DNA of 25,191 nt from a virus (lineage: Duplodnaviria > Heunggongvirae > Uroviricota > Caudoviricetes). Under the pieces are notes generated by a model that worked only from the letters and a program-made list of their open reading frames with translations, did no database searches and was not told the DNA's origin. This document shows positions 1-24,257 of this stretch, in pieces; the stretch's first letter is position 1; each line of letters opens with the position of its first letter. The translations under genes and the position numbers were made by a program. The DNA lies in IMG/VR virus record IMGVR_UViG_2778261276_000008, positions 1 to 25,191 of that record; one strand, 5' to 3'.

Positions 1-1053
1 TTACGGGGTAATGCCAACCGCTGCCGCCACTTTGTCGCCACTTGGCAGTGTTGCCAGAGGATTGAAACGGAGCGCCGTTTCCAGATGATCCGGTGCCAGA
101 TGTGCGTAACGCATAGTCATTTTTATATCGTGGTGTCCGAGAATTTTTTGTAAGGCCAGAATGTTTCCACCCGACATCATGAAGTGCGCCGCAAACGTAT
201 GGCGCAGAACGTGTGTGAGTTGACCGCGAGGGAGCACGATAGACGTTTTTTCCATCACGGATAAAAATTGAAAATAGCAGTCTGTGAAGAAATTGAACCC
301 ATCAAGCGCCATGATCTCTTCGTAAAGCTCTTTACTGATAGGGATGCTTCTGTTTTTCTTCCCCTTCGTTCTTACAAAGGTAATTCGGTATTTGGTCACC
401 TGTGAACGAGTAAGATTTACGGCTTCTCGCCAGCGTGCGCCTGTGCTTAAGCATATCTTAACTACCAGTGCCAGAATTGGGTCCTGACGTTTGCAATCAG
501 CCAGTAATTCAACAATCTGCTCATGGGTAAGCCATGCCATCTCTTTTTCTGCGATGGTGAATTTTCGCATGTTCTCCAGTGGGTTTGGATATGACCATTC
601 GCCCAGGCGGGATAGTTCGCTAAAAACACTACTTAGATAGCTTTGCTCTAGGTTAATGGTGACCGGGCTGGCTCCTTTCTTCCATTTCTCGCTGAAGTAG
701 ATCTCACCTGTCAGTCGTTTATCTCGATAATGGGCAAACATTTTAGATGTGAGATCGGTTGCAAGGGGATTGCCCAGAGCGTCAACCATCAGCAGCAATT
801 TGTCATAGACATGCTGCCCAGCAGTCAGAGATTTACCATGTAGTTTGAACCATAGCTCAACCACGTCTTTCAGGGTTCGACGATCTACTGATTCGCCCAG
901 CCAGGGCTTTGCTTCGGTTTCTTCCATCGTGTGACGCTCAAAAGCCAGTGCTTCGCCTTTGGTGGCGAATTGTTTACGCACACGACGCCCACTACGTCCG
1001 GCGGGGTAACATTCGCAAAGCCATTTTCCTGTGGTGAGTTTTCGTACTGCCAT
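1..1053 (-). CDS. int: Tyrosine integrase (P2/186 Int family), 350 aa
   Basis: Full ORF with the stop codon at 1..3 on the reverse strand. The C-terminal region has the tyrosine-recombinase pattern (R...HxxR...Y; LRHTFAAH, MRYAHL). Sits at the prophage end next to the att repeat. Confidence 0.9.
   Translation of the reverse strand: MAVRKLTTGKWLCECYPAGRSGRRVRKQFATKGEALAFERHTMEETEAKPWLGESVDRRTLKDVVELWFKLHGKSLTAGQHVYDKLLLMVDALGNPLATDLTSKMFAHYRDKRLTGEIYFSEKWKKGASPVTINLEQSYLSSVFSELSRLGEWSYPNPLENMRKFTIAEKEMAWLTHEQIVELLADCKRQDPILALVVKICLSTGARWREAVNLTRSQVTKYRITFVRTKGKKNRSIPISKELYEEIMALDGFNFFTDCYFQFLSVMEKTSIVLPRGQLTHVLRHTFAAHFMMSGGNILALQKILGHHDIKMTMRYAHLAPDHLETALRFNPLATLPSGDKVAAAVGITP
19..41. repeat. 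Candidate attL core (CGCTGCCGCCACTTTGTCGCCAC), inside the 3' end of int
   Basis: Seen in sequence: matches 22337..22359 at 21 of 23 positions (two C/T differences). Confidence 0.5.
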
Positions 1054-1134
1054 AAAAAATGCCCTCCAATAGAGAGCATTTTTACTGTATGTATAACCAG
1101 TGTCAATGTATTAGATACATGTTGTCATACATCA

Positions 1135-2109
1135 TCACTTTTTGGTAATGCTGTCATCATTTGCTGCTGATTTTTTATCTACAAGTGTACCTAGAATGTT
1201 AAATAAATTTGGAGGTGGCTGCATTTTATCTGCGAATGCAGAATTAGCAGACATGTTCCAATCTTTAAACACATCAATAGCATCTTGTTTTGTCGCAGTT
1301 GAACCATAAATTTGTAAGAAGACTTCACCAAACATTAGAGCATGTTGTCTGTCTTTTCTTATGATTGCTTCATGTGTGTATTTTTTTGAATTGTTTAAAC
1401 AAAAATAAGAAAGCCAAGAAAGTAATGCAACCCCAAGCAAGCCTCTAGTGAAATAATAAAAAAGTTCAATGGGGGTAGTATCTTTTATATCTATTTTATA
1501 AAAAAATGTTAAAAAGGCGGCACTTATAGATAATAATGAAAATAGTATTCCGGCTATCGCCCAATTGTAAGACATTGCAGTGAAATCTTTATCATCCTGC
1601 TGTAGTTTTTCTTTGACGCCCTGCACATATTTAGGAACTTTTTCGTCAATTTTATTTTGTTGGATTTTGCTTGAAAGTTCTTGGTTTTGAAGCTTTAGCT
1701 CATTGTTTTTGGCGTGTTGGAAATCTAGCTGTGATGCTAGTTTTTTTTTACTTTCCATTTCATTTAATAATTTTTCATTCAACTTTTCCATTTGCTCTGA
1801 ATGAGAGTTATGGATTTTTTGCAATTCACGCACTTTATGCTCTAATTTAGTGATTTTTGAAATGTAATCATCTATCTCACTATTTTTTAAGGATGTGCGT
1901 TCGGGGTTAATGTGCTCACAATTATATTTTTTAGAAAAATATTTACTGTAAACATCAAAAAGCACATCGAATTCATTAAACTTTAAAGAATTCAATAGTT
2001 TTTTCAAATCATTATAGACACTATCGGATAAATATGATTTTAATTCCTCTAGTTTAATGATTCTAGAGATATATTCTTCACTATTATCTTTCCAATTGGA
2101 ACCGGCCAT
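1135..2109 (-). CDS. Hypothetical protein, 324 aa: coiled-coil N-terminal region plus two predicted transmembrane helices (cargo gene)
   Basis: Long ORF, visibly AT-rich compared with flanks. SD-like GAGGA about 7 nt upstream of ATG. Lys/Glu/Leu-rich heptad-like region around aa 80-170. Hydrophobic helices at about aa 183-204 and 224-238. Lies 12 bp downstream of the cI-like gene on the same strand. Confidence 0.6.
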   Translation of the reverse strand: MAGSNWKDNSEEYISRIIKLEELKSYLSDSVYNDLKKLLNSLKFNEFDVLFDVYSKYFSKKYNCEHINPERTSLKNSEIDDYISKITKLEHKVRELQKIHNSHSEQMEKLNEKLLNEMESKKKLASQLDFQHAKNNELKLQNQELSSKIQQNKIDEKVPKYVQGVKEKLQQDDKDFTAMSYNWAIAGILFSLLSISAAFLTFFYKIDIKDTTPIELFYYFTRGLLGVALLSWLSYFCLNNSKKYTHEAIIRKDRQHALMFGEVFLQIYGSTATKQDAIDVFKDWNMSANSAFADKMQPPPNLFNILGTLVDKKSAANDDSITKK

Positions 2110-2121
2110 TCCAATATCCTC

Positions 2122-3066
2122 TTATAATTCTTCTATAAGCAAAAATTTGCATTTAGCAATAACATCAATGTCTGAAATATTACATTCAAACGATAAATAA
2201 TTGTCTGAGATTTTTAATCTTCCTACAGGTATCCTAGTTAGGGTTCGAATACTCACTTTTCCTTCTATTTCAACAATCCATTTACCATCTGTAATTTCAT
2301 CAAATGACTGATCACATAGGTATGTTTTTTTTGGGGTACTGACAATCAGTGGTAATTGGATTGAGTCTGGTATTAATGCTTTATCAAGCATATAGAAATC
2401 TGACTCAAATAGATTCCCATCAGTGATTTTTTTGCGTGTAATAGCAATTACATCATTTCTTGCATCGTCAAACTTTGGGCCTTTACCAGTAGTTAGCCAC
2501 GTTAGTGAAGTACCCGTTTCTAGAGCGCACTTAATTATCCAGTCTGAAGGAAAGACATCACGCATATATCTTGTGGCTAATGTGCTTTTTGAAATACCTA
2601 AGTGATCAGCTAAGGCTTGGCGCGTCTTATAACCGTAAGCCTTAACAATTCGTTCTATTGCTTCCTTGCCACCTCGAGAAAAATCAACGGAGTTTTCATT
2701 GTCGAACTTTTGTTGTTTATAGTGAACATCATGATAAGAACCATCTTCGGAGTGTGTTTCAACATGTTGTTCTGGTGAAGGGGATGGCATTTGCTCGTCA
2801 TCATCTGAACCAAATGCTAGCCATTTAATTGATGCTCCTGTTTCCATTGAGCAGATAACTACCCAATCTGCAGGAAATGTATCGCGGGCATATCTGTTAG
2901 CCATCGTGCTTTGGGAAATACCTAGATGGTTACAGAATGCCTGGCGTGACTTGAAGCCATAAGCCATGAGTATCCGCTCAATTACTTTCTGACCACCGCG
3001 ATTCTGTATGACAACGGCTTTCATATCGTCATTCATATGGCGAAATGTGAATTTTTGAGTTGACAT
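2122..3066 (-). CDS. cI: CI-like immunity repressor with tandemly duplicated 186-CI-type HTH domain, 314 aa
   Basis: Two internal repeats (about aa 14-86 and 117-195) share a GG..IERI..AYG(F/Y)K.RQA...HLGIS.ST.A.RY.RD.FP.DW...C..ETG.S..WL..G pattern, resembling the N-terminal DNA-binding domain of coliphage 186 CI as I recall it. Divergent from the apl-like gene, as in 186. Confidence 0.75.
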   Translation of the reverse strand: MSTQKFTFRHMNDDMKAVVIQNRGGQKVIERILMAYGFKSRQAFCNHLGISQSTMANRYARDTFPADWVVICSMETGASIKWLAFGSDDDEQMPSPSPEQHVETHSEDGSYHDVHYKQQKFDNENSVDFSRGGKEAIERIVKAYGYKTRQALADHLGISKSTLATRYMRDVFPSDWIIKCALETGTSLTWLTTGKGPKFDDARNDVIAITRKKITDGNLFESDFYMLDKALIPDSIQLPLIVSTPKKTYLCDQSFDEITDGKWIVEIEGKVSIRTLTRIPVGRLKISDNYLSFECNISDIDVIAKCKFLLIEEL

Positions 3067-3408: not shown

Positions 3409-3918
3409 ATGTTTGATTACCAAGTTTCCAAACATCCACATTTTGATGAAGCCTGTCGTGCTTTCGCACTGCGCCACAACCTGGTGCAACTGGCAGAACG
3501 TGCAGGCATGAATGTGCAGATTCTGCGGAACAAGCTGAACCCAGCTCAACCTCATTTATTAACCGCACCAGATATCTGGCTACTTACCGATCTGACTGAA
3601 GATTCAACGCTGGTAGATGGCTTTTTGGCTCAGATTAATTGTCTGCCATGTGTACCGATTAATGAGGTGGCAAAAGAGAAACTGCCGCATTACATCATGA
3701 GTGCAACAGCAGAGATCGGGCGTGTAGCTGCAGGTGCGGTTTCAGGCGATGTAAAAACCAGTGCAGGTCGTCGTGATGCGATCAGCAGCATTAACTCTGT
3801 AACACGACTGATGGCGTTGGCTGCTGTTTCATTGCAGGCCCGTTTACAGGCTAATCCTGCGATGGCGAGTGCAGTTGATACCGTGACTGGCCTCGGTGCT
3901 TCATTCGGTTTGCTATGA
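3409..3918 (+). CDS. cII: CII-like transcriptional activator (186 CII family)
   Basis: Protein beginning [24 protein letters not shown]... closely resembles 186 CII as I recall it. ATG at 3409 has a CAGGAG SD 8 nt upstream. The ORF track's GTG at 3400 is an alternative start. Confidence 0.75.
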
Positions 3919-3925
3919 GGTGCTT

Positions 3926-4126
3926 ATGCTTACGAAAGAACCATCATTTGCATCGCTGCTGGTAAAACAAAGTCCGGCAATGCACTACGGTCACGGCTGG
4001 ATAATGGGTAAGGATGGTAAACGCTGGCATCCGTGCCGTTCACAAGATGAATTGCTGGCAGAACTATCAACGAAAAAACGGGGGAACAAATGGCTATTGA
4101 AGGCGCTGCGGCGACTGTTCCATTAA
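3926..4126 (+). CDS. Small hypothetical early protein (positional analogue of 186 fil)
   Basis: ORF with a GAGGTG SD directly after the cII stop. Function not recognisable from sequence. Start is uncertain (ATG at 3896 is the alternative). Confidence 0.4.
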   Translation: MLTKEPSFASLLVKQSPAMHYGHGWIMGKDGKRWHPCRSQDELLAELSTKKRGNKWLLKALRRLFH

Positions 4127-4431
4127 GCCCCGGTGAACGCCTGAATGGACTTAATCACATTGCGGAGTTAAGGGCGAAAGTTTTTGGCCTGAATATTGAG
4201 TCAGAGCTTGAGCGGTTTATTAAAGATATGCGTGATCCACGGGATATCAATAACGAACAAAATAAACGGGCACTGGCAGCCATATTCTTTATGGCAAAAA
4301 TTCCGGCTGAACGTCATAGCATCAGCATTAATGAGCTGACCACTGACGAAAAGCGGGAGTTGATTAAAGCAATGAATCATTTTCGTGCAGTGGTGAGCTT
4401 ATTTCCCAGACGGCTAACCATGCCGAATTAA
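4090..4431 (+). CDS. Hypothetical early protein, 113 aa (positional analogue of 186 dhr)
   Basis: ORF in the early operon that overlaps the preceding ORF by 37 nt. No recognisable motif. Confidence 0.5.
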   Translation: MAIEGAAATVPLSPGERLNGLNHIAELRAKVFGLNIESELERFIKDMRDPRDINNEQNKRALAAIFFMAKIPAERHSISINELTTDEKRELIKAMNHFRAVVSLFPRRLTMPN

Positions 4432-4498
4432 CCAACTAATGAAATTCATGGCGTAAACCCGCCGGGCATCCCTTTATCTAAATTAAGGAGAATTTATT

Positions 4499-4732
4499 AT
4501 GCGTAATATTGAAACCCTCAAGACTAAGACCGGACCGGATGACGCAGGGCTTAATATTTTACTGACAGAGGCTCGTCTGGAAGAACGCCGGGCAAGGGCT
4601 GAAGCAATGGCAGCTCGCCTTGATAGTCTGGCGTGTCATATTACATCCCGCCAGCTAAACCACGTCGAAGCGGCAGAACTGCTGCGTGTGACTGCTGAAG
4701 CAATCCAGAACGAAGCGCAGGAGATCCACTAA
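4499..4732 (+). CDS. Hypothetical early protein, 77 aa
   Basis: Strong SD (AAGGAG) 7 nt upstream. Stop overlaps the next start (TAATG). Confidence 0.55.
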   Translation: MRNIETLKTKTGPDDAGLNILLTEARLEERRARAEAMAARLDSLACHITSRQLNHVEAAELLRVTAEAIQNEAQEIH

Positions 4733-9811: not shown

Positions 9812-11551
9812 ATGGAATTGCACGCATATACTAGAACCATATCAGAATTACTTTCGGTTAATAGAAAATATGTTGTCCCAAGATTTCAGCGAGAATATTC
9901 TTGGGTAAAAGAACAAATTAATGAGCTTTGGTATGATGTAATATCTAATATCAAATTAGAGAATGATTTCACATATTCTAATAATGAGTATTTTATTGGT
10001 TCTTTAGTTTTAGTTGGAGATGAAACAGGAAGGGAAATGCAAATAGTTGATGGTCAGCAACGACTTACAACTCTTACGATTTTTCTTTCCGTTTTATGTG
10101 AGGCGTTCAAGCTAAACAATCAATCAGATTTAGCATCTGCTCTATTTGAAAATTATATTGAAGGTCGTGATGATGATGGTAAGAAATTTTTTAAGCTAAT
10201 AAATGAAACACCTAAGCCTTTTTTTCAGAAAAATATCCAACACCTTAATAAGGCAGATGACGCACCCCAGACACAAGAGGAGCGAAATCTCTTGTCTGCA
10301 TATAAGGAAATTACATCGTTAGCCTCAAAGGAAAAATTGGGAAAGTATTTTTCAGTCGAAATTAATACTGAAGATAATTATTCCAGTGTATTAAAAGCAA
10401 TTAGGGATCAGATTTTAAGATTTCTTAAGATAATTTTTATTACTGTTAATGAAGAGGACGAGGCGTATACAATATTTGAAACATTAAATGCGAGAGGGAT
10501 GAATTTAAGTTTTGTAGATCTAATTAAAAATAAATTATTTAAAGCGTTAAACAACCCTCATCCAAATGATGATGCAAAAGATAATTGGAAGGCTATACGT
10601 ACTACTTTAATGCAAAGAAATGGTGTAGGGACTTTTGAAAATTTCATGAGGCACTGGTGGGTGTCGAAGTATGCTTACGTAAGCAATGAAAATCTTTATA
10701 AGTCCTTTATTGGAAAATGGCGTAAGGGGGAAATTAATCCGGTAACCTTTATTGAAGAATTGAAACAGGATGCCGAATTGTATGTACGCTTGTCATCTCC
10801 TTTGGAGAGTGATTATCCACAAATGGAAGATAAACAGATATTCCATTCGTTGAATGCAATTAGGCTATTTGGTATAACGCAGTGTAGACCTTTTTTATTA
10901 GCTTTACTAAAGGCAAAACAGCAAAGGAGATTGCGTCAATGTGATCTTTTAAAAGCAGTTAAATATATTGAAAATTTTCATTTTGTATTTAATGCGATAT
11001 GTTCATTAAGGCCGTCAGGGATAGAAGGTGCATATTCTAAGGCCGCAAGAGCAATAAATTCACCAAATGCTACAAAAGTAACTAATGGTACAACAATTGA
11101 ACAGTTATGCTTGTTGTTGAGTAACCGCAAGCCAGAAATTTCTGTATTCACTGAAAATTTCAGAGATATATTATTTACTGATGACAACTCCAAGCAAAAA
11201 AGATTGGTCCAATATATTATAAATAAATTTGAAATGGCCCGTCATAATGGAGATGAGTATCGTCCTAATTCTATTTCTTTAGAGCATATAATGCCTCAAA
11301 GTGCTGGCAACGATAAGGAAATAGGAATGATTGGAAATATAATCCCTCTGTCAAAAGAACTTAATGAGCAAGCTGGTAATAAATCATTGGCACAAAAGCT
11401 CTCTATCTATTCACAATCGGAGTTTAGATTGACGGAAGAGTTTATTAGTGAACTTGAAACCATTTACCATAATGAATGGAATCTCCAGTCTATTATTCAG
11501 AAGACAGATAGAATGGCTGGTGAGGCTTATATGAATATTTGGAGTCATTAA
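9812..11551 (+). CDS. DUF262/DUF1524 (GmrSD-like) putative type IV restriction / anti-phage nuclease, 579 aa
   Basis: N-terminal DUF262 hallmarks (RFQREYSW at about aa 23-31, DGQQRLTTL at aa 80-88). C-terminal His-Me-finger-like SLEHIMPQS (His about 492) followed by Asn residues. AT-rich single gene. Confidence 0.75.
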   Translation: MELHAYTRTISELLSVNRKYVVPRFQREYSWVKEQINELWYDVISNIKLENDFTYSNNEYFIGSLVLVGDETGREMQIVDGQQRLTTLTIFLSVLCEAFKLNNQSDLASALFENYIEGRDDDGKKFFKLINETPKPFFQKNIQHLNKADDAPQTQEERNLLSAYKEITSLASKEKLGKYFSVEINTEDNYSSVLKAIRDQILRFLKIIFITVNEEDEAYTIFETLNARGMNLSFVDLIKNKLFKALNNPHPNDDAKDNWKAIRTTLMQRNGVGTFENFMRHWWVSKYAYVSNENLYKSFIGKWRKGEINPVTFIEELKQDAELYVRLSSPLESDYPQMEDKQIFHSLNAIRLFGITQCRPFLLALLKAKQQRRLRQCDLLKAVKYIENFHFVFNAICSLRPSGIEGAYSKAARAINSPNATKVTNGTTIEQLCLLLSNRKPEISVFTENFRDILFTDDNSKQKRLVQYIINKFEMARHNGDEYRPNSISLEHIMPQSAGNDKEIGMIGNIIPLSKELNEQAGNKSLAQKLSIYSQSEFRLTEEFISELETIYHNEWNLQSIIQKTDRMAGEAYMNIWSH

Positions 11552-20384: not shown

Positions 20385-21200
20385 TCATATTTTTAATTTT
20401 TTATGGATATGCTCCATCCCTAAATTAGATATCTCTTTTTTTAGCTGGGTTTCACTTGCAGTTATCCAGTTTTTTCCACAGTTTGGTAGAAGCATCTCGC
20501 TACTTGACGGATTGATAAGTTTTACTTTTTCATTCTTTATAATTTTGTTTTTCAAATAACTTTTACTTATTAAGGCTGATTTTTCAGTTATAACGAGATA
20601 AAAAAATATGCTTCCAAAAAATATACCTTTTAAAATAATACCGCTGCGTAACAGAACAGGGTCATTTTTGGTTATTCTCATTTTAAAGGGAGAGCAAAGG
20701 TTGTCTTCACTTGTAGGTATATTAAGTTCGCTTTTTTGCTCGTCAGTAAGTTTAAGAGGCATGAGCAGTCCAGCGAAGAGCATGACATCTTTTTCTGAAG
20801 GCAAAGGTTCTCCGCGGAGAATATAATCTTTATATGCGCCAAAAATATGTGTGGATGGATCATTGACCGCGCTTGCCGAGTTGTAAGAAATTTTCATTAA
20901 CCAGCGTAGCAATAAATGATAATCATAAGTTATAGTCGTTTGTGTCTTTAGATAAAGTTGGGTTAAGAAACCGTTTCTGGCTAAAAACTGACTTCCATAA
21001 TCATCTAAAAAACTTAATGCTCCACCATTGCATGTTTTACAAACATCGGCAATTGTTGCCTCACCACCAATTATATCATTTGCTCTCTCGTTCCAGCCTA
21101 TAAAACGATCTCCAGATTCTTTTTGATATTTATATATAAATTTAGGGATAATATGTTCTCTTTCTATTATTCCATCTTGCTCGCAATATCTGCAGTGCAT
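20385..21200 (-). CDS. HNH-motif nuclease-domain protein with uncharacterised C-terminal domain, 271 aa (cargo at the S-V locus)
   Basis: N-terminal 60 aa carry C3-x2-C6 ... E15-H16-IIPK ... N37/N41 ... C54-x2-C57-N58, the spacing of HNH/His-Me finger nucleases. Gene is AT-rich, on the opposite strand to the late genes, with GGAG SD 8 nt upstream. Confidence 0.6.
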   Translation of the reverse strand: MHCRYCEQDGIIEREHIIPKFIYKYQKESGDRFIGWNERANDIIGGEATIADVCKTCNGGALSFLDDYGSQFLARNGFLTQLYLKTQTTITYDYHLLLRWLMKISYNSASAVNDPSTHIFGAYKDYILRGEPLPSEKDVMLFAGLLMPLKLTDEQKSELNIPTSEDNLCSPFKMRITKNDPVLLRSGIILKGIFFGSIFFYLVITEKSALISKSYLKNKIIKNEKVKLINPSSSEMLLPNCGKNWITASETQLKKEISNLGMEHIHKKLKI

Positions 21201-21307: not shown

Positions 21308-21826
21308 ATGAACGCACAATTAACCGAAATCATGCGCCTTATCACCAACCTGATCCGCACTGGGGTAGTCACCGAAGTGGACAGGGAAAACTGGCTTTGC
21401 CGAGTGAAAACGGGCGACCTTGAAACTAACTGGATCAGTTGGCTGACGCTGCGTGCAGGAAATGCCCGGACATGGTGGCGACCATCGGAAGGTGAGCAGG
21501 TGGTGCTGCTGAGTCTGGGCGGTAATCTGGAAACCGCGTTTGCCCTGCCTGCGGTCTACTCAAACCAGTTTCCGCCACCTTCAGGCTCTGAGGACGGCAA
21601 CGTGACGGAATACCCGGACGGCGGCTGGTTTGAATACGAACCCGCCACCGGGCGCTGGTATGTCAGGGGCATCAAATCAATGGTCATTGAGGCCGCTGAC
21701 AATATCACCCTGAAAACCAGTGAGTTTGTGCTGGAGGCTGACCGCACGCGTATTAACAGCGAAGTGGTGATCAATGGTGGCGTTACCCACATTCCGTTTT
21801 GCCGCTTCTCCCAAACCAACGTTTAA
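21308..21826 (+). CDS. V: Baseplate spike/assembly protein V (P2 gpV family), 172 aa, probably C-terminally truncated
   Basis: N-terminus MNAQLTEIMRLITNLIRTGVVTEVD resembles P2 gpV. Shorter than P2 gpV (about 211 aa). No W, J, I, H, G, FI, FII, E, T, U genes follow. Confidence 0.75.
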   Translation: MNAQLTEIMRLITNLIRTGVVTEVDRENWLCRVKTGDLETNWISWLTLRAGNARTWWRPSEGEQVVLLSLGGNLETAFALPAVYSNQFPPPSGSEDGNVTEYPDGGWFEYEPATGRWYVRGIKSMVIEAADNITLKTSEFVLEADRTRINSEVVINGGVTHIPFCRFSQTNV

Positions 21827-22027
21827 GAAAATGCAGAGGTAACAGCTAACTGGCATCATCTCCGGTTTTTATTCAGGGGAATGCCAGTGAAAGTCAGTGG
21901 TTTTAAACAGCCGATAGATGATGCGGAATGGACCATTACGACTCTGACACATACCGTCAGCCCGGATAACGGTTTTATGACCAGTCTGGAGCTTGAAGTG
22001 AGGATTGATGATTTCGAAATGGAATGA
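21827..22027 (+). pseudogene. D: Remnant of the 3' end of tail gene D, in frame with V after its stop codon
   Basis: Open frame ending ...MPVKVSGFKQPIDDAEWTITTLTHTVSPDNGFMTSLELEVRIDDFEME, located immediately upstream of ogr where gene D ends in P2. Resemblance to the gpD C-terminus is from memory only. Confidence 0.45.
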
Positions 22028-22571: not shown

Positions 22572-24257
22572 TTATCCTAATCCTGGCCATACCATGACGA
22601 TGATTGTCCCTGCCAGCGTCAGCAGGACGTTGGCGATTGCATAGGTGCCCGCATAGCCCAGCGCCGGGATGTTACTGCGAGCTGTATCACTGATGATCTC
22701 CATTGCCGGCGCGCAGGTACGTGCGCCCATCATTGCGCCGAACAACAGCGCGCGGTTCATTCGCAATACATAAGCACCGAACAAGAAACAGATAACCACG
22801 GGCACCAGACTGACAATCAATCCGGCAATCAACATCTGACCGCCAATCGCGCCCAGGCCGTTATTAATACCGCTACCGGCGCTCAGACCAACGCCTGCCA
22901 TAAACACCATCAAGCCGAACTCTTTCACCATGCTTAATGCACCCTGCGGAATGTAACCGAAGGTCGGGTGGTTAGCACGCATAAAGCCCAGCATAATTCC
23001 GGCGAATAACAACCCGGCAGCGTTCCCCATGCCGAAACTGAATGTGCTGAACTGGAAGGTGATCATCCCGATCATCAGCCCAATAACAAAGAAGGCGCAG
23101 AATGCCAGCAGGTCAGTGACCTGGCTGTGAATCGAGATAAAGCCGATGCGATCGGCGATGGTTTTTACGCGGCGGGCATCGCCGCTGACTTGTAAAACGT
23201 CACCTTTGTTAAGCACGACGTTGTCATCTATCGGCATCTCAATCTGGCTACGAATGACGCGGTTAAGGAAGCAACCGTGATCGGTCAACTTCAGTTGTGC
23301 GAGACGTTTACCTACAGCGTTATGGTTTTTAACGACCACTTCTTCAGTGACGATACGCATGTCGAGAAGGTCACGATCGAAAACTTCTTTACCGTTACGG
23401 AAGCTGGGATCGAGTCGGGCATGGGCGTCGGGATAGCCTACCAACGCTATTTCATCGCCCATTTGTAGCACGGCATCACCGTCTGGATTTGCCAGAATCC
23501 CGTTACGTCGAATACGTTCAATGTAGCAGCCGGTTTGTCGATAAATACCCAGTTCACGCAGATTTTTGCCGTCGGTCCAGGCCACCAGTTCCGGGCCGAC
23601 GCGATAGGCGCGGATCACCGGTAAATAAACCTTACGGTTGGCATCAGTGTCCAGGCCACGTTCGCGGGCGATTTGCTGGGCGCTGGTCTGTAAGTCCTGA
23701 TGCTGCAATTTCGGCAAGTAACGCGCACCAACAATCAAACTCACCAGACCGATTAAATAGGTTAAGGCATACCCGAGGCTCAGATTATCCAGTGCCAGTG
23801 AGAGCTGCCTGCTTTCCATGCCGGAATGACGCAGTGTATCGCCAGCACCGACCAGAACCGGTGTCGACGTCATAGAGCCTGCTAACATACCGGCCGTCAG
23901 GCCAATATCCCAGCCAAACAGCTTACCTAACCCTAAGGCGATCACCAGCGCACTGCCAACCATCACCAGTGCTAACATTAGGTAATTTTTCCCATCGCGA
24001 AAAAAAATGGAAAAAAAGTTCGGTCCGGCTTCGACCCCGACGCAGAAAATAAACAGCATAAAGCCAAGATTAAGCGCATCGGTGTTAATGCTGAAATGTT
24101 GTTGGCCTAATAACAGCGATACGACTAAAACGCCAATGGAATTACCCAGTTGGATCGAACCAAGTCGTAACTTTCCGAGACATAGCCCAAGCGCGAGGAC
24201 CACAAATAATAACAGAATGTAATTCCCATTTAACAATTCGGCGACGTTTATATTCAC
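22572..24257 (-). CDS. ybjL: Putative transport protein YbjL (AAE-type transporter with central RCK_C/TrkA-C domains), 561 aa
   Basis: Multi-TM N- and C-terminal halves with soluble central domains. Sequence and length match E. coli YbjL as I recall it. Neighbours ybjM and grxA as in E. coli. Confidence 0.85.

Follow-up and report, generated by a model that had tools for sequence, protein, structure and literature searches.

The 25,191-nucleotide stretch of DNA analysed here (the window) is IMG/VR virus record IMGVR_UViG_2778261276_000008 (Caudoviricetes), a prophage which, judged from its chromosomal context, is integrated next to rcdA in Escherichia coli. Positions 1054–2121 of the window comprise an open reading frame (ORF) for a protein of 324 amino acids (aa), termed gene X in the following, together with both of its flanking spacers. 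In the ORF list, X is the middle one of three consecutive minus-strand genes, cI, X and int, whose products are a CI repressor of the phage 186 type, protein X and a tyrosine integrase (Table 1). A preliminary description of the region, made from the sequence without database searches, had placed the ORF 12 bp downstream of the repressor gene, on the same strand and upstream of int, and this arrangement is borne out by the ORF list and by the Pfam assignments of the neighbours. A GAGGA Shine-Dalgarno sequence is located 7 nt before the ATG of X, inside the 12-bp spacer that follows the cI stop codon, and the end of X is separated from the ATG of int by 81 bp. The strong AT-richness of X relative to the phage backbone, also noted in that description, agrees with the GC contents of 30.9% for X (26.5% at third codon positions), 38% for cI, 48.2% for int, and 48.2% for the whole window. 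The P2-type backbone which it had implied did not hold, the early region (CI, CII, Fil, Apl-like) being of the 186 type.

Gene X is confirmed to be a real gene and not a chance ORF, since a search of 5.8 billion proteins retrieved 153 close homologues, since residues 27–319 match positions 26–310 of the 314-position profile of phrog_2628 (annotated as “function unknown”) with an E value of 4.7e-71, and since the C-terminal part of the protein shows a ratio of nonsynonymous to synonymous substitution rates (dN/dS) of 0.11 between two E. coli alleles.

Architecture and predicted topology of protein X

Protein X is all-helical in the AlphaFold2 (AF2) model and, as judged from alignments, can be divided into an N-terminus that evolves fast (aa 1–~140) and a C-terminal module that is strongly conserved (aa ~145–300). 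Three short helices within aa 5–65 form a small bundle, which is followed by a disordered linker and by a single helix of 81 residues (aa 77–157); in the best heptad register of this helix, 61% of the residues at the a and d positions are hydrophobic, as compared to 16% at the other positions. The long coiled-coil N-terminal region proposed in the preliminary description was therefore recovered for aa 77–157, as indicated by the AF2 helix and its heptads, whereas aa 5–65 form the bundle of short helices instead. The two hydrophobic helices predicted there at about aa 183–204 and aa 224–238 reappeared as maxima of the 19-residue Kyte-Doolittle windows at aa 184–203 and aa 220–238, and structure modelling with AlphaFold, which had been suggested as a check, placed both segments as paired transmembrane (TM) helices of a predicted helical hairpin.

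A separate AF2 model of the module, based on an alignment of 34 diverse modules, reached a predicted local distance difference test (pLDDT) value of 91.5 and a predicted TM-score (pTM) of 0.75. It consists of a 63-residue helix that combines a stalk with TM1, a short loop, a 56-residue helix that combines TM2 with the returning stalk, and two short helices which bracket the WN…SAF loop. In the AF2 models the hydrophobic segments form the tip of the hairpin and the polar invariant motif lies at its base; the periplasmic loop of the predicted hairpin comprises only about 10 residues. The family motif of the module reads YTHExIxRKDRxHALxFG…FKDWN…SAF. Across 98 diverse members of the module family, no variation is seen at H256, A257, G261, F281 and W284, and E247, R254, F260, N285 and F292 are nearly invariant. 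Protein X is predicted to be an inner-membrane protein of N-in/C-in topology with both ends in the cytoplasm, because five lysine or arginine residues follow TM2, a signal peptide is lacking, and the N-terminal domain of relatives is a TIR domain, which is cytoplasmic.

Homologues and diversification of the N-terminal part

The homologues listed are all about 320 aa long, and every named source is either a member of the Enterobacterales or a Caudoviricetes metagenome assembly. Nearly all of them are named “hypothetical”, apart from three with incidental coiled-coil names. One close homologue carries a precomputed match to PF28496, which was not reproduced in a local Pfam scan. Pfam, NCBIfam and PADLOC scans of full-length X returned only coiled-coil noise and sub-threshold matches to DUF2207_C, and profile-based sequence searches of the PDB yielded coiled coils or nothing. 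Searches of the literature retrieved neither a mention of the protein accessions nor a described system with the architecture of X.

In an alignment of 34 sequences the first ~140 residues are hypervariable and the remainder is nearly frozen, with 47 invariant columns. For a closer view of this diversification, the window was compared with a prophage of strain SA53-3 that occupies the same site. The integrases of the two prophages share 99.7% and the CI proteins 93.6% amino acid identity, and the C-terminal part of X is 95.4% identical, with the low dN/dS given above. Identity drops to 62.4% in the N-terminal part (dN/dS 0.56 at a dS of 0.43), indicating that the N-terminus of X has been replaced, or has diversified, far faster than its surroundings.

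The C-terminal module in bacterial conflict systems

A profile of the module (residues 140–324), scored against 1.84 billion representative proteins clustered at 50% identity, matched 465 clusters at E<1e-3 and 280 clusters at E<1e-10. These are spread over the Proteobacteria and at least one plasmid of a Firmicute. Among the best 150 of the 465 matches, the module is located at the C-terminus of every full-length protein, behind 50–260 other residues. It is covered by no Pfam, NCBIfam or PADLOC model. N-terminal partners found among the 98 diverse members are TIR_2 (16 proteins), TIR (8), EAD11 (7), MgtE_N (3) and HNH (2); ThsB_TIR, CAP12-PCTIR_TIR and DUF4062 occur as further partner domains in distant members. 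Individual TIR-module fusions exceed the Pfam cut-offs, as exemplified by protein P0226 with 74.9 bits against a cut-off of 28, and PADLOC matches in distant members are limited to the TIR parts. The presence of an EAD, a type of adaptor domain, is a mark of effectors in conflict systems (PMC7159879). With respect to annotation, ten distant clusters are all named “hypothetical” but for one “TIR domain”.

Genes of defence systems were found within about 5 kb in four of the seven distant contexts inspected. One distant member adjoins a Hachiman system (HamA and helicase), and on a Sinorhizobium plasmid a patatin and nucleotidyltransferase pair resembling the cyclic oligonucleotide-based antiphage signalling system (CBASS) lies beside a TIR-module fusion. 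DUF4238 and DUF262 genes are located near a distant member on a Vibrio plasmid, and another distant member lies at a moron position of a P22-like phage. A degraded 186-like element beside smpB has an Abi_alpha (PF14337) gene in the cI–int slot together with a homologue of X, and a restriction-modification system and a DUF2726 helicase just beyond int. Three inspected contexts were devoid of defence neighbours, namely those of the TIR fusion P0226, of P0131 inside a phage, and of an orphan gene of Chimaeribacter among metabolic genes. A search for related loci with a narrow alignment retrieved 7 loci.

Intact orphan copies of X, devoid of cI and int, are present beside yjcB in three Chimaeribacter species; their host flanks are syntenic at 82–88% DNA identity, and the modules are 90–96% identical. 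The orphan may represent a domesticated prophage remnant, since an X-bearing 186-like prophage of Serratia also sits beside yjcB. That these copies have been kept without cI or int speaks for a benefit of the gene to the cell which does not depend on the phage. Because the module recurs in fusion with TIR, EAD11, HNH or MgtE_N domains and among defence genes, comparison of these proteins marks it as a portable part of bacterial conflict systems. The link of the module to TIR, EAD11 and HNH fusions, as drawn from the profile matches, and the size of the family are new here.

The cI–int slot of 186-like prophages

The best explanation for the presence of X is that it is accessory, AT-rich cargo in a variable slot between cI and int of 186-like prophages. 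Relatives contain unrelated genes at the same backbone position, and the GC content of X is atypical (31% versus 48%). In phage 186 the slot is empty and cI abuts int, PSP3 harbours a DUF2511 gene, and many E. coli prophages at the rcdA site carry a 63-aa YdcA-like gene; the degraded element next to smpB contains the Abi_alpha gene plus the X homologue mentioned above. The slot of Klebsiella phage 4LV2017, whose int region and start of cI share about 92% DNA identity with the window at a CI protein identity of about 57%, is filled by an unrelated soluble protein of 349 aa. This protein was considered as a relative of X and rejected, its hhalign comparison with the family profile giving a probability of 0.2%.

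The order cI-X-int is found in E. coli with alleles of X that are only 25–55% identical to the protein of the window, and it also occurs in Serratia, Dryocola, Brenneria, Yersinia, and an unclassified isolate of the Enterobacteriaceae. The E. coli strain CFT073 likewise harbours an allele of X in this slot. Of 5,426 complete E. coli genomes, at least 151 contain module-like DNA, and the leader of this int type is common to 655 E. coli genomes; therefore, roughly a quarter of the prophages with this type of int carry a member of the family. In P2-like phages, the interval between int and primase has been described as a minor defence hotspot that accounts for 8% of the recognisable P2 systems (PMC13586616).

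The prophage of the window is defective. Its homology to intact relatives ends in the baseplate gene V at about position 21789 and picks up again with the end of gene D and with ogr, immediately ahead of the host gene ybjL; therefore, about 11 kb of tail genes are missing. The cI-X-int block has been kept in this remnant. As regards the repressors, CI of the window comprises 314 aa with two tandem Phage_CI_repr helix-turn-helix (HTH) domains, as compared to 192 aa with one domain for CI of phage 186. The relatives in Serratia and Yersinia encode a 190-aa single-HTH CI, so that X occurs together with both types of repressor.

Expression of X and the int leader

The record of phage 186 describes a lysogenic operon, cI-int, transcribed from the promoters pL (maintenance) and pE (establishment). 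Co-transcription of X with cI is likely, because the 12-bp spacer leaves no room for a terminator. A 13-bp hairpin between X and int, bordered by an A-run and a U-run, has the appearance of an intrinsic terminator; the GGAGG Shine-Dalgarno sequence of int falls within its 3' arm. A promoter-like site upstream of int overlaps this hairpin, the total number of promoter-like sites in the region being not above chance. The 86-nt int leader is about 90% conserved in the 655 genomes, whatever the cargo upstream, and may attenuate expression of int in lysogens. Protein X would thus be made together with CI in the lysogen from the lysogenic promoters, with int being attenuated by the hairpin that follows X.

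Comparison with known systems

SLATT, the SMODS and SLOG-associating 2TM effector, is a membrane effector in CBASS and in type VII Thoeris (ThsH). SLATT domains also occur in retron systems, with a predicted role in membrane breaching upon activation (PMC7159879). They resemble the module of X in forming a two-TM helical hairpin with cytoplasmic helical extensions, as suggested by hydropathy, charge and the AF2 models, and they resemble the wider X family in belonging to conflict systems. As for TIR domains, with which SLATT domains associate, distant members of the X family are fused to them. In contrast, the motif H-E…R-x-H-A…F-G…W-N…S-A-F is specific to the X family, whose proteins have a sensor-like or enzyme domain ahead of a C-terminal module, and the only gene neighbours of X in the window are cI and int, without a partner gene for a nucleotide signal. 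The NCBIfam model SLATT_1 matched 2 of 34 distant module sequences (best E value, 5.5e-4), and a distant relationship of the module to SLATT is plausible. A search of the PDB did not retrieve a solved SLATT structure.

Single accessory genes for exclusion or abortive infection beside the repressor or integrase gene are known from the lysogeny modules of other phages. Sie2009 of lactococcal P335 phages and glo of Vibrio phage K139 are exclusion genes of this kind. Ltp of Streptococcus thermophilus phage TP-J34, BstA of BTP1 and PdpSau of Staphylococcus aureus prophages belong to the same group; like X, such genes are predicted to be expressed in the lysogen, and their products are often membrane-associated and protect against other phages (PMC3952083, PMC10127798, PMC8585504). 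A relationship to X in sequence or fold was not detected, although no search aimed at it was made, and these proteins are lipoproteins, small membrane proteins or soluble DNA-binding proteins instead of a coiled coil joined to a conserved 2TM module. Like the cargo of the P2-like hotspots (tin/old, Z/fun, int-primase), X is AT-rich, lies in the int-primase interval and occupies a slot of varying content; unlike this cargo, it corresponds to no described system, and its place is within the lysogenic operon, away from the gpA-portal and tail hotspots. SNIPE, a membrane-bound nuclease with a DUF4041 domain, is likewise an elongated helical protein anchored in the inner membrane and has a diversifying surface, and in some relatives of X an HNH nuclease domain precedes the module. 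SNIPE shows no homology to X, however, and combines a single N-terminal TM helix with DUF4041 and GIY-YIG, whereas X is devoid of a nuclease domain.

Two further candidates were rejected. A Foldseek search of the PDB with the full-length model retrieved the ClyA/AhlB-type pore-forming toxins AhlB and SmhB at E values of 0.66–1.8 and TM-scores of 0.22–0.26. Class II holins have fewer than 150 aa and are encoded in lysis cassettes, as opposed to the 324 aa of X and its position in the lysogenic operon.

Proposed function and alternatives

On the best reading of these data, X is probably a SLATT-like effector which is made in the lysogen and acts at the membrane in abortive infection or exclusion. 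In the proposed mechanism, the N-terminal coiled-coil region would hold the module inactive and sense a cue of the infecting phage, whereupon the SLATT-like 2TM module would oligomerise and depolarise or permeabilise the inner membrane, in line with what has been proposed for SLATT effectors. The breach would abort the infection and so protect the lysogen population and the resident prophage. The suggestion of the preliminary description that the protein is reminiscent of abortive-infection or superinfection-exclusion effectors gains real but indirect support because the module is fused to TIR, EAD11 and HNH domains, distant members have defence genes as neighbours, the cI–int slot is variable, and the N-terminus diversifies quickly. 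That X is an anti-phage factor acting by way of the membrane is, in our estimate, an evenly balanced proposition, and for the exact mode of action our confidence is lower.

Several observations weigh against an active SLATT-like effector. The sequence comparison of X with SLATT-like families, which had been suggested at the outset, turned out negative, as no SLATT profile of Pfam or NCBIfam was matched by X at E≤1 or by the module at E≤10. Among the top 50 matches of a Foldseek search of BFVD, six were SLATT proteins (E 0.18–0.8, TM-score ≤0.49), but no match fell below E 0.02; these matches are not significant, and the fold is that of a generic helical hairpin. Neither a PADLOC defence model nor a recognisable sensor or enzymatic domain was detected in X by the Pfam, NCBIfam and PADLOC scans. 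Searches by tblastn with X and with one distant module sequence did not find a match in 50,697 isolated phage genomes, 141 of which encode a related CI repressor; as far as these genomes tell, the family seems to be confined to prophages, plasmids and chromosomes not isolated as phages. The defence neighbourhoods stem from a handful of loci, which is too small a sample to show enrichment. In proteins with an enzyme-effector partner (TIR, HNH), anchoring or sensing, and not killing, could be the task of the 2TM module, and the order cI-X-int, which is kept across genera, would fit a role in the phage's own lysogeny as well.

The main rival to the proposed effector is superinfection exclusion at the membrane, in which the 2TM module would merely anchor the protein in the inner membrane, at the place of genome entry, and the entry of DNA would be blocked without killing the cell. 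The HNH and TIR fusions would fit a module that anchors or senses, with the activity residing in the N-terminus; on their account exclusion has to be taken seriously, although we regard it as unlikely. The variable coiled coil would on this reading recognise ejection proteins, tape-measure proteins or an entry factor of the host. The fast evolution of the N-terminus agrees with it, and there are precedents both for the gene order and for the mode of action: exclusion genes beside the repressor or integrase are a recurrent arrangement, as in the Ltp-type proteins of Streptococcus thermophilus phages, and SNIPE is a membrane-anchored defence protein at the site of injection with a diversifying phage-binding surface (PMC13190303). 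The cytoplasmic polar motif (E247, R254, H256, W284, N285), in contrast, has been kept over 465 clusters, beyond what a passive anchor would need, the periplasmic loop is very short, and the fusions with EAD11 suggest an effector.

A function in the phage's own life cycle, with X kept beside cI and int because it works with them as a membrane modulator of lysogeny, induction, integration and excision, or of lysis timing in the manner of a holin or antiholin, and a role in lysogenic conversion unrelated to phages are less likely than exclusion. For the former, which appears improbable, speak the strict gene order from E. coli and Serratia to Yersinia, Brenneria, Dryocola and others, the close translational coupling of X to cI, and weak matches to Phage_holin_3_6 in 3 of 34 module sequences (best E value, 0.0024); the 2TM N-in/C-in layout also resembles that of class II holins. 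Yet phage 186 and many relatives have no gene or unrelated genes in the slot, homologues of the module exist outside phages, in fusion with immune domains and in defence islands, and orphan copies persist without a prophage. Moreover, a near-identical relative already encodes an HP1-family holin in its lysis cassette, and X is three times the size of a holin. Conversion affecting envelope physiology, stress tolerance, ion homeostasis, or resistance to colicins or contact-dependent inhibition would be in line with AT-rich, moron-like cargo and its predicted expression in the lysogen, with the occurrence of MgtE_N, the Mg2+-sensing domain of a transporter, in some relatives, and with the Chimaeribacter orphans among metabolic genes. 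It is nevertheless quite improbable, given that the dominant partner domains (TIR, EAD11, HNH) are immune domains, that rapid N-terminal diversification is typical of an arms race, and that distant members have defence genes as neighbours.

A broader reading goes beyond the proposed effector. The module might represent a widespread, unmodelled class of bacterial immune membrane domain, distinct from SLATT, which links the inner membrane with exchangeable heads in the cytoplasm (coiled-coil sensors, TIR, HNH, EAD11 adaptors); its closed hairpin would switch to a membrane-breaching or signalling oligomer, and the version found in 186-like prophages would be a minimal “sensor coil plus pore” protein driven by the repressor promoter. 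Taken as a whole, this combination is tentative and rather doubtful.

Other features of the window and its relatives

In the gpA-portal hotspot, the window encodes a 579-aa DUF262 protein which has a solved DUF262 protein as a relative (E 1e-15) and SspE as a more distant one. Three small hypothetical genes take its place in the near-identical prophage of strain 20KM2222. An insert of 1.1 kb between the virion-morphogenesis gene and the baseplate gene V, corresponding to the Z/fun position of P2, contains a 271-aa ORF. This ORF is present in only 10 of the 5,426 E. coli genomes, is annotated as “hypothetical”, and is a candidate for hotspot cargo. Coordinates of these and all other features are compiled in Table 1.

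Table 1. Features of the window and of related loci, with the evidence on which each assignment is based
Feature	Coordinates	Strand	Evidence or remark
Tyrosine integrase gene int (350 aa)	1–1053	-	Pfam Int_N and Phage_integrase
Terminator-like hairpin (13 bp) with A-run and U-run, between X and int	1055–1083	-	RNA fold, region z-score -3.8
Promoter-like site TTGACA-N17-AAAAAT	1078–1106	-	Consensus scan, 10/12 matches
Gene X	1135–2109	-	ORF list
Conserved 2TM module (aa 145–300): stalk helix, TM1, short loop, TM2, stalk helix, WN-SAF loop	1210–1677	-	Alignments, AF2, profile search
Conserved cytoplasmic motif (aa 244–293), YTHEAIIRKDRQHALMFG…VFKDWNMS…SAF	1231–1380	-	Alignments of diverse members
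Predicted TM2 (~aa 216–239)	1393–1464	-	Kyte-Doolittle 1.43, AF2 hairpin
Predicted TM1 (~aa 183–204)	1498–1563	-	Kyte-Doolittle maximum 2.2, AF2 hairpin
Long single helix (aa 77–157) of coiled-coil character, hypervariable between alleles	1639–1881	-	AF2, pLDDT >90
Small N-terminal helical domain (aa 1–65), fast-evolving	1915–2109	-	AF2 helices 5–22, 29–40, 44–65; alignment
cI-X spacer (12 bp)	2110–2121	-	Read from the sequence
CI repressor gene, 186-type (314 aa), two HTH repeats and CI C-terminal domain	2122–3066	-	Pfam Phage_CI_repr E 3.1e-58 (two stretches), Phage_CI_C E 2.7e-31
DUF262 protein gene (579 aa)	9812–11551	+	
271-aa ORF	20385–21200	-	
Deletion junction of the prophage	~21790–21873		
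Host gene ybjL	22572–24257	-	
Abi_alpha (PF14337) gene between CI remnant and X homologue	L017 6050–6943		Degraded 186-like element beside smpB
Orphan X homologue and related yjcB-side loci	L023–L025 ~3536–4620; L031 5536–6615		

Implications for prophage immunity

Should X prove to be a factor of defence or exclusion, the immune repertoire of E. coli prophages would gain a single-gene system. The junction between cI and int of 186-like phages would then be a slot in which lysogeny automatically turns on the cargo, and a conserved 2TM module that annotation resources have missed, in spite of its presence in hundreds of clusters, would receive a name and a testable function. The contrast between a diversifying N-terminus and a frozen module would make the family suited to domain swaps that address the specificity of sensing.

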